From: Candidatus Omnitrophota bacterium
GTDB lineage: Bacteria > Omnitrophota > Gorgyraeia > VGKH01
Direction: 5' to 3'
Assembly: GCA_016867135.1 (NCBI GenBank)
Contig: VGKH01000002.1
Span: forward strand, 6,312 to 70,311
DNA length: 64,000 nt
The translations under genes were made by a program, and so were the position numbers. This document shows, piece after piece, positions 41,893-43,866 of the stretch (the first letter of the stretch is position 1; every line of letters starts with the position of its first letter). The notes under the pieces were generated by a model. That model did not search any database. It saw only the letters and a program-made list of their open reading frames with translations, and was not told the origin of the DNA.

Positions 41893-43866
41893 ATGTATAA
41901 TTTAAATCCTAAGCAGAAAATAATAGTTTCAATCCTGATAATAATCTTATTGGGTGCGGCCGTTTATTTTAATTCTTTATTTAATCCTTTTCTCTGGGAT
42001 GATGAAGCTTTAGTTTTGAAAAGCCACCTGATAAAAGACTTCAAAAATATTAAAATGAGTTTTAAGGTTAATCTTTTTTATCGCGTTGTCCCTACTAATT
42101 ATTACCGGCCCCTGCAAACAATCTCCTATATGTTTGATTATCATATTTGGGGGCTCAATCCTCTGGGTTACCATATAACAAATGTGTTTTTGCATATCTT
42201 GACGGCACTTTTGGTTTTTTTGTTAATATTTATTTTTTGTCAGGATGCCCGGATTTCTTTAGTTACGAGTTTATTTTTCTTGCTTCATCCTCTTGCCGTT
42301 GAATCTGTTAGTTATATATCTGGACGGGCAGATTTGATGGTTGCTTTATTTCTGTTATCTAGTTTAATTTTATTTATAAAATATTCTGAATACTTTGGAA
42401 TAAATAGGAAGATTTGTTATGTTGCTTCTGTTTTATGTTTTATCCTGAGTTTATTATCCAAAGAAATGGCTATAATTTTTCCGGTAATTCTTATATTCTA
42501 CGACATCGCCTTTAATAATCTTAGCTTAAAAAATATCAAAAGTTTTATTCGCAGGTACATTCCTTTTGTTTTAATCGATATTATCTACATAAGCCTTAGG
42601 TTGACGGTTTTAAGTTTTTATTCCCTTCCTTTGGAAACCGGCCATTTCCTTTTGCATAGCCGCATCTTAATTTTCTTTAAAACGATTATGCTTTATTTAA
42701 GAATTTTAGTATTTCCTTTTGACATTCATATGAAGCGTATGATTTCTATGCCGCGGTCAATATTTGAGCCAACAATGTTGCTTTCTTTTCTAGGCGTTAT
42801 TATGTTGGTCGTTTTAATAATTTTATTACGGAAAAAACATCATACTATGTGGTTTTTTTCGGTTTGGTTTTTCGTATTTTTATTTCCGCAATCGGGAATA
42901 TATCCGATAAGCGCTTTTGTGGCAGACCATTTTTTGTATCTACCTTGCATAGGTTTCTTTTTTATTTGCACGAGCCTGCTTAAAAGAAATTTCCCCAAAA
43001 GGATATTCGTTTTTATCGTTACATTATTTTTGCTCTTTTTCGGTTTTGTTACTTTTAGACAGAATGAGATTTGGAGGGACAAGGAGACTTTATATAAGTA
43101 CATTTTGAAATTTTCACCTGACAGTTGGGAGGTTCATAATAATTTAGGCAATTTCTATCTAGATAGCAACCGGTGGGAAGATGCCTTAGATGAATTTCAA
43201 AAATCCGAAAGACTTAATGACCGTTATTTTACGGTCCAGGTCAATATAGCCAATGTTTATGTTGATATGGGTCAATATGAAAAGGCGATTGAAAGATACC
43301 AAGAGATAATAAAAAATTTTCCTGACGAGGATTTAACAAATATCCATAATGCCATCGGCTACTGTTATGCGTCCTTAAAACGCTACGAAGAGGCTCTCAA
43401 TAAATTTAAGTTTGTTTTGGGAATTAACCCAGATTTGCCTTCGGTACATTTTAATATTGCAAAGGTTTATCTAGAGCAAAATAAGAACAGGCAGGCTATG
43501 GAGCAAATACTATTGGTTTTGGGTCCGGATATTAAGTCTTCTGATTTATTTATCCTGCCGAAACCTAGCCAGGACGAATACCTGGAGGTAATTAAAAATA
43601 GAGATTGTATAATGAATACGCTTTTAGGCTTAGGAATCCTTTTTAGCAAGTACGGTCTTTGGGATTATGCTGAGAGGGCTTTTAAAAAGGCCATTGATTT
43701 AGATCCCGAATACGCCGATGCCCATTATAACCTTGGGGCATTATATTTTAGGATGGGTAATCTTCTTGACGCCAAGAAGATGTGGCAAAAAGTTCTTAAG
43801 TTAAAACCCGACCATATTTACGCAAAAGAGCAATTATTAGATTTGAAAATAAGACAATTTCGATAA
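41893..43866 (+). CDS. TMTC/PMT-like polytopic membrane protein with C-terminal TPR repeats (putative protein O-glycosyltransferase-like)
   Basis: ~11 TM N-terminal half; C-terminal repeats NLGNFYLDSNRWEDALDEFQKS / NIANVYVDMGQYEKAIERYQE / HYNLGALYFRMGNLLDAKKMWQKVLKL = TPR. Confidence 0.55.
   Translation: MYNLNPKQKIIVSILIIILLGAAVYFNSLFNPFLWDDEALVLKSHLIKDFKNIKMSFKVNLFYRVVPTNYYRPLQTISYMFDYHIWGLNPLGYHITNVFLHILTALLVFLLIFIFCQDARISLVTSLFFLLHPLAVESVSYISGRADLMVALFLLSSLILFIKYSEYFGINRKICYVASVLCFILSLLSKEMAIIFPVILIFYDIAFNNLSLKNIKSFIRRYIPFVLIDIIYISLRLTVLSFYSLPLETGHFLLHSRILIFFKTIMLYLRILVFPFDIHMKRMISMPRSIFEPTMLLSFLGVIMLVVLIILLRKKHHTMWFFSVWFFVFLFPQSGIYPISAFVADHFLYLPCIGFFFICTSLLKRNFPKRIFVFIVTLFLLFFGFVTFRQNEIWRDKETLYKYILKFSPDSWEVHNNLGNFYLDSNRWEDALDEFQKSERLNDRYFTVQVNIANVYVDMGQYEKAIERYQEIIKNFPDEDLTNIHNAIGYCYASLKRYEEALNKFKFVLGINPDLPSVHFNIAKVYLEQNKNRQAMEQILLVLGPDIKSSDLFILPKPSQDEYLEVIKNRDCIMNTLLGLGILFSKYGLWDYAERAFKKAIDLDPEYADAHYNLGALYFRMGNLLDAKKMWQKVLKLKPDHIYAKEQLLDLKIRQFR

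Follow-up and report, generated by a model that had tools for sequence, protein, structure and literature searches.

A TfpW-like and TMTC-like GT-C membrane protein with TPRs, encoded in an Omnitrophota type IV pilus locus, is a plausible pilin glycosyltransferase

We analyzed a stretch of 64,000 nucleotides of Candidatus Omnitrophota DNA, referred to here as the window, in which a gene for a large membrane protein with tetratricopeptide repeats (TPRs) lies among type IV pilin genes. The features relevant to its interpretation are as follows.

12681-14114: Wzy_C protein (Wzy_C, 1.5e-11), which could be a PglL-type O-oligosaccharyltransferase
36933..37745, + strand: GT2 glycosyltransferase like polyprenyl-phosphate sugar synthases (Glycos_transf_2, 1e-25)
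38118..38591, + strand: third prepilin gene, major-pilin-like, with C-terminal ITTGGVLTPGSPQQ (N_methyl, 5.4e-10; Myxococcus PilA, 8.1e-15)
40696..41166, + strand: major-pilin-like prepilin gene (GFTLMEIM; N_methyl, GspG and Myxococcus PilA matches), candidate acceptor substrate
41294..41863, + strand: second prepilin gene (N_methyl, 4.6e-6; counterpart at L002 1859-2326)
41893..43866, + strand: GT-C + TPR membrane protein gene, TfpW-like/TMTC-like (ORF, identical database protein, AlphaFold2 model)
41893..43086, + strand: predicted GT-C glycosyltransferase domain, residues 1-398 (structure, motifs, transitive homology)
41998..42003, + strand: codons for D36-D37 of the FxWDD motif (FLWDD here), first periplasmic loop (conservation in homologues)
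43087..43863, + strand: predicted periplasmic TPR domain, residues 399-657 (∼7 hairpins; non-TPR insert at ∼544-572)
43954-44424, + strand: minor pilin gene, directly 3' of the GT-C/TPR gene
44421-45065, + strand: minor pilin gene
45080-46828, + strand: PilX_N/DUF4900 gene, after the minor pilin genes
47109..51145, + strand: pilM-pilN-pilO-pilP-like-pilQ assembly genes, assigned by synteny

An earlier note on this DNA had read an ORF at 41893-43866, and the ORF listing of the window confirmed it: 657 codons run from ATG to stop over exactly this span, and the product is identical to a Candidatus Omnitrophica MAG protein (P0001; NCBI/JGI records). A database search found the identical protein on 6 contigs, and the full-length GT-C + TPR architecture recurred across hundreds of independent assemblies. 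No paralogue of the GT-C domain was found elsewhere in the window. The gene indeed lies between pilin genes and minor pilins, as had been noted, with 38118-38591, 40696-41166 and 41294-41863 upstream and 43954-44424, 44421-45065 and 45080-46828 downstream. Only 30 bp separate its start from the prepilin gene at 41294-41863, and a scan of 37.7-44.5 kb revealed no terminator-like sites between the pilin genes and the GT-C/TPR gene; promoter-like matches in the same AT-rich region were too frequent for interpretation. The ORFs at 47109-51145 have the position, size and order of pilMNOPQ in related loci, with Pfam assignments taken from the syntenic genes in L001-L006.

The C-terminal half bore out the claim of at least five TPR repeats. 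Pfam TPR_1 matched it with an E value of 2.6e-33 in 5 separate stretches between about residues 400 and 656, the repeats are canonical, and the AlphaFold2 model folds this half into ∼7 helical hairpins. The NCBIfam profiles for Tgl (73.2 bits, cutoff 225) and PilW (59.7 bits, cutoff 154) both scored below threshold. As the earlier note had held, the protein is not of the Wzy_C-type PglL/PilO kind: Pfam detected no Wzy_C domain in it.

For the N-terminal half, which had been described as GT-C- and TMTC/PMT-like, the outcome was divided. TMTC-type motifs are present and the fold emerges from the model, but the N-terminal 398 residues gave no match to Pfam PMT, PMT_2 or DUF1736, even at E ≤ 10. 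We thus base the GT-C assignment on structure, motifs and transitive homology in place of a direct Pfam match. The transitive link comes from 2 of 21 homologues, in which PMT_2 (7.6e-8) and PMT (9.1e-6) were detected; TMTC_DUF1736 did not match the query, its best E value being 0.06, in 1 of the 21. A phmmer search of PDB sequences with the query found nothing. The sole Pfam match of the N-terminal 398 residues at E ≤ 10, to ODV-E18, was spurious, and two phycobilisome-linker matches (E ∼1) in a profile search of PDB sequences were due to chance. The AlphaFold2 model (pLDDT 94.9, pTM 0.92) is confident in both domains; a second structure model had a pLDDT of 89.2. As modeled, residues 1-398 are a polytopic membrane GT-C fold. 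Counting the helices of the model and applying the positive-inside rule, we predict 11 transmembrane (TM) segments, a cytoplasmic N terminus and a periplasmic C-terminal TPR domain, with the helix at 254-273 not spanning the membrane but lying in the long loop that joins TM7 to TM8 on the periplasmic side.

Conservation within the family centers on residues that map to motifs of the eukaryotic TMTC proteins. In the sets of 78 and 21 homologues, the conserved residues include D36, D37, Y71, R72, P73, R145, D147, K190, E191, R236, H279, H346 and Y349, and they correspond to TMTC motifs M1 (DD), M2 (..YRP), M3 (RxD), M4 (KE) and M7 (E-R/H-x-x-Y). Among the 78 sequences, D37 never varied and D36 was conserved in at least 90%, while both were invariant in the 21-sequence N-domain alignment. 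TMTC motifs have been rationalized as donor, metal and acceptor sites, with M1 equivalent to D77/E78 of Pmt1 and D55/E56 of ArnT (PMC7801869); following that scheme, D36-D37 correspond to these residues and are a putative catalytic or acceptor-binding acidic pair. The match to the TMTC set is partial. Of M2 (SHKSYRP), only YRP is kept, and the M7 counterpart is D345-H346-x-x-Y349, in which His replaces the phosphate-binding Arg of ERxxY, so that the family reads (D/E)HxxY. M5 (DW) and M6 (PxxP) were not recognizable.

The earlier note had named two findings on which its proposal could fall, a missing GT-C fold and orthologues outside pilus loci, and neither was encountered. All relatives with at least 38% identity (38-58%, about 640-665 amino acids) lie inside type IV pilus loci (8 of 8), and in 7 of these the gene has a pilin gene on one side and the minor-pilin/pilMNOPQ genes on the other. 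The exception is L038, where it is flanked by pilMNOP-like genes and the secretin gene and does not adjoin a pilin gene. In each of the five orthologous loci read in detail, a major-pilin-like gene is found upstream, either directly or with one prepilin gene intervening; in L005, an uncalled pilin gene upstream of the GT-C/TPR gene was found as well. Downstream, the order minor pilin, minor pilin, PilX_N/DUF4900 recurs in L001 and L002. What lies upstream of the locus varies: the window and L001 have a glycan cluster there, whereas L003-L006 and L037 have radical-SAM, Memo, RsmE and MiaB genes. All four shorter paralogues (34-38% identity) lie outside pilus loci, and L035 carries three GT-C/TPR paralogues in tandem. 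Since the GT-C domain family is huge (126,550 cluster representatives at E ≤ 1e-3) and these four distant paralogues lie outside pilus loci, the family is not intrinsically pilin-specific, and membership in it does not by itself imply a pilin substrate.

The pilins beside the gene are Ser/Thr-rich (14-27%) and have in common a C-terminal TTGGVLTP-like motif, which makes them plausible acceptors. The prepilin gene at 38118..38591 belongs to an inserted block that is missing from the closest orthologous locus (L001).

Two further parts of the window bear on a possible donor. The GT2 encoded at 36933-37745, 4 kb upstream of the GT-C/TPR gene, gave sub-threshold NCBIfam matches to AglJ, dolichyl-P hexose transferase, PgfS, ArnC and PpgS, and a homologous GT2 (27% identity, E 7e-20) adjoins the tandem paralogues of L035; we consider it a candidate maker of the lipid-linked donor. 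A conserved partnership between GT2 and GT-C/TPR gene was rejected, the GT2 being absent from the orthologous loci examined (L001-L006). Just upstream lies a 21-kb glycan cluster, part of which is also present upstream in L001, encoding the Wzy_C protein, two Wzx-like flippases, a PglF-like dehydratase, GT4s and a WecA-like phosphoglycosyltransferase; the Wzy_C gene is 28 kb from the GT-C/TPR gene, within what is apparently an O-antigen/EPS cluster. Together with the nearby GT2, the K190/E191, R145/D147 and YRP motifs hint indirectly at a possible polyprenyl-phosphate-linked donor. The scan of window ORFs between 5.6 and 52 kb detected no D-arabinofuranose genes (DprE1/DprE2, UbiA-type transferase). 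Because of this, and because of the polyprenyl-phosphate-sugar-synthase-like GT2 4 kb upstream, the sugar transferred probably differs from that of TfpW.

TfpW is the pilin-specific enzyme demonstrated in P. aeruginosa group IV strains (Pa5196/PA7), a protein of 646 amino acids with 11 TM segments, a DDX motif and C-terminal TPRs, encoded immediately downstream of pilA; group IV pilin glycosylation requires TfpW and its DDX motif (bioRxiv 10.1101/2020.04.19.049825). The earlier note had argued that a pilin glycosylation enzyme of this kind would belong to a different class. This holds with respect to the Wzy_C type, but the combination of GT-C domain and TPRs is already known for pilins from TfpW. 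Homologues of TfpW are listed for Pseudomonas indica and likewise for Kingella denitrificans and others, adjoining pilA (bioRxiv 10.1101/2020.04.19.049825). Our comparison sequence was this P. indica homologue (L026 2612-4480), not PA7 TfpW itself; its locus was retrieved with a degenerate prepilin DNA pattern across the genome contigs, and the ORF lies directly downstream of pilA with UbiA, PAP2-like and SDR genes beside it. Query and P. indica homologue aligned in BLASTP with 25% identity over 576 amino acids (E 5e-26) and in hhalign over 332 columns with a probability of 99.0% (E 3.5e-18), and reciprocal tblastn with the P. indica homologue gave matches in all orthologous loci. Specific orthology to TfpW was nevertheless dropped: the P. 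indica homologue gave 43-60 bits with non-pilus paralogues and a comparable 58-84 bits with pilus-linked members, so that BLAST scores do not separate the two. The linkage to the pilus could thus have arisen independently of TfpW.

Taken together, the product of the gene is probably a GT-C glycosyltransferase of the inner membrane that belongs to the PMT/TMTC/TfpW type and works specifically for the type IV pilus, and pilin glycosylation is its plausible function by analogy with TfpW. For this enzyme, we infer the topology, the type of donor, the identity of the acceptor, the O-linkage and what the GT2 does. A cytoplasmic GT2, for which 36933-37745 is the candidate, would load a sugar onto polyprenyl phosphate, and the lipid-linked sugar would be flipped to the periplasmic face. 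There the 11-TM domain would hold it through the K190/E191, R145/D147, Y71-R72-P73 and H346/Y349 motifs, while D36-D37 in the first periplasmic loop would activate or position the acceptor Ser/Thr hydroxyl. The periplasmic TPRs may recruit the acceptor, for which pilin subunits still anchored in the membrane before assembly (major, possibly minor) are the likeliest choice.

The pilus-linked position is also compatible with a role in building the pilus machine. The TPRs might act like those of PilF, PilW or Tgl in promoting assembly of the PilQ secretin, with the membrane domain serving as an anchor or glycosylating PilQ or another machine part. This would fit the sub-threshold Tgl and PilW matches, the JGI name "Tfp pilus assembly protein PilF" of one homologue (P0057), the position of the L038 gene directly upstream of secretin genes, and the fact that a separate TPR pilotin gene was not seen in the type IV pilus loci examined (L001-L006). 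However, the similarity of the TPRs to PilF/PilW is no better than that to numerous unrelated proteins with TPRs, among them OGT, APC subunits and MamA, with scores far under the cutoffs, and known pilotins are lipoproteins of roughly 250 amino acids, not 11-TM proteins. The conservation of DD, RxD and KE across 78 homologues suggests an active enzyme, and it is a pilin gene that precedes the GT-C/TPR gene in 7 of 8 loci. We therefore regard an assembly factor as rather improbable.

It is unlikely, though deserving of consideration, that the protein has a general role as a periplasmic glycosyltransferase for many envelope proteins, or for a glycolipid or a polysaccharide. Its place in the pilus locus would then reflect inherited gene order, and any pilin glycans would be added by the Wzy_C protein and the upstream cluster. 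Such a reading draws on the size of the family, most of which is not pilus-linked and which includes the tandem arrays of L035; on the 21-kb glycan cluster with its Wzy_C protein, partly present in L001; and on the TfpW homologue not being specifically nearer to the pilus-linked members. Nevertheless, the gene keeps its place in pilus loci in all 8 relatives, at identities as low as 38%, even though the upstream genes vary; TfpW, a homologous enzyme whose gene is placed in the same way with respect to pilA, is demonstrably pilin-specific; and the distance and apparent O-antigen/EPS context of the Wzy_C gene argue against its serving the pilins. That the ORF is a relic without catalytic activity, or results from misassembly or chimerism, might be suspected from its origin in a metagenome-assembled genome and from the missing direct Pfam glycosyltransferase match. 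This is hardly credible: it is effectively refuted by the conservation data, namely the recurrence of the full-length architecture in independent assemblies, the identical protein on 6 contigs and the invariant motif residues, and the model is confident in both domains.

Extending the preferred reading of a pilus-dedicated glycosyltransferase, we tentatively speculate that a TMTC-like GT-C + TPR family has expanded in Omnitrophota into many substrate-specific, TPR-targeted periplasmic protein O-glycosyltransferases, much like the division among POMT, TMTC and TMEM260 in eukaryotes. One ancient, phylum-wide member might then have become fixed in the type IV pilus locus, placing a sugar other than D-arabinofuranose on pilins by means of a His-variant active site, its linkage having arisen independently of proteobacterial TfpW.

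The conceptual gain is modest, the enzyme type, the architecture and the pilA-adjacent position having already been described. We found no literature treating Omnitrophota type IV pili together with a glycosyltransferase. If our reading is correct, TfpW-type (GT-C + TPR) pilin glycosylation reaches beyond a few Proteobacteria into an entire candidate phylum, and a functional handle is gained on a very large family labeled merely "tetratricopeptide repeat protein" in databases. Omnitrophota are ultra-small and possibly host-dependent, and type IV pili are thought to be important for attachment; in Pseudomonas, according to bioRxiv 10.1101/150227, pilin glycans change phage susceptibility and surface properties.

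Among known systems, the small TPR lipoproteins PilF, PilW and Tgl of the outer membrane, which type IV pili require, resemble the protein in their TPRs, with weak similarity there in profile and structure; they lack a GT-C domain, whereas here an 11-TM N-terminal domain is predicted and there is no lipoprotein signal. PglL, PilO (TfpO) and TfpM, too, reside in the membrane, and they modify pilins with glycans on its periplasmic side; Wzy_C enzymes transfer undecaprenyl-pyrophosphate-linked oligosaccharides en bloc. They differ from the Omnitrophota protein, which has no Wzy_C domain, belongs to another fold family and carries TPRs; TfpO is, like TfpW, encoded right after pilA (bioRxiv 10.1101/2020.04.19.049825). 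From the fungal and animal PMTs (Pmt1/2/4, GT39) it is set apart by TPRs in place of a MIR domain and by a sequence identity of 10-15%, the query falling under the Pfam PMT thresholds. Eukaryotic TMTC1-4, protein O-mannosyltransferases of the GT-C/PMT clan that were compared by sequence and published description, combine 11 TM segments with luminal C-terminal TPRs, periplasmic in our protein, and have in common with it the non-spanning helix in the TM7-TM8 loop and the DD, YRP, RxD and KE motifs. Residues 118-134 of TMTC3, KSSVIASLLFAVHPIHT, nearly match the bacterial family consensus LLFxVHPxHTEAV. TMTC1-4 are, however, ER enzymes acting on cadherins, while the Omnitrophota protein is bacterial and pilus-linked, without a significant TMTC_DUF1736 match and without the DW motif.

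TfpW itself is similar in size (646 versus 657 amino acids) and, on the topology predicted here, in its 11 TM segments, its cytoplasmic N terminus, the DD(x) motif in periplasmic loop 1 and the periplasmic C-terminal TPRs. Both genes lie directly downstream of a pilin gene, here across the 30-bp gap and with a pilin gene upstream in 7 of 8 related loci. The P. indica homologue has the motifs WDD, YRPL, HP..E.V...GR.D, LLSKEMA..FP and Y-x6-PF in common with the Omnitrophota protein, and it carries the exact YX6PFX7P motif that TfpW has in periplasmic loop 4, YLRMIVWPFSDINPMHP. The Omnitrophota counterpart reads Y268-x6-P275-F276, with Y268 and P275 invariant in the N-domain alignment, but with the next proline (P287) 10 residues on instead of 7. 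It further differs from TfpW in having (D/E)HxxY instead of ERxxY and in belonging to another phylum (Omnitrophota versus Proteobacteria), with only ∼25% identity to the P. indica homologue. In P. indica, DprE1/DprE2/UbiA D-arabinofuranose genes, absent from the part of the window scanned, flank the gene, and the TPRs are barely detectable by Pfam, whereas those of the Omnitrophota protein are canonical and strong.

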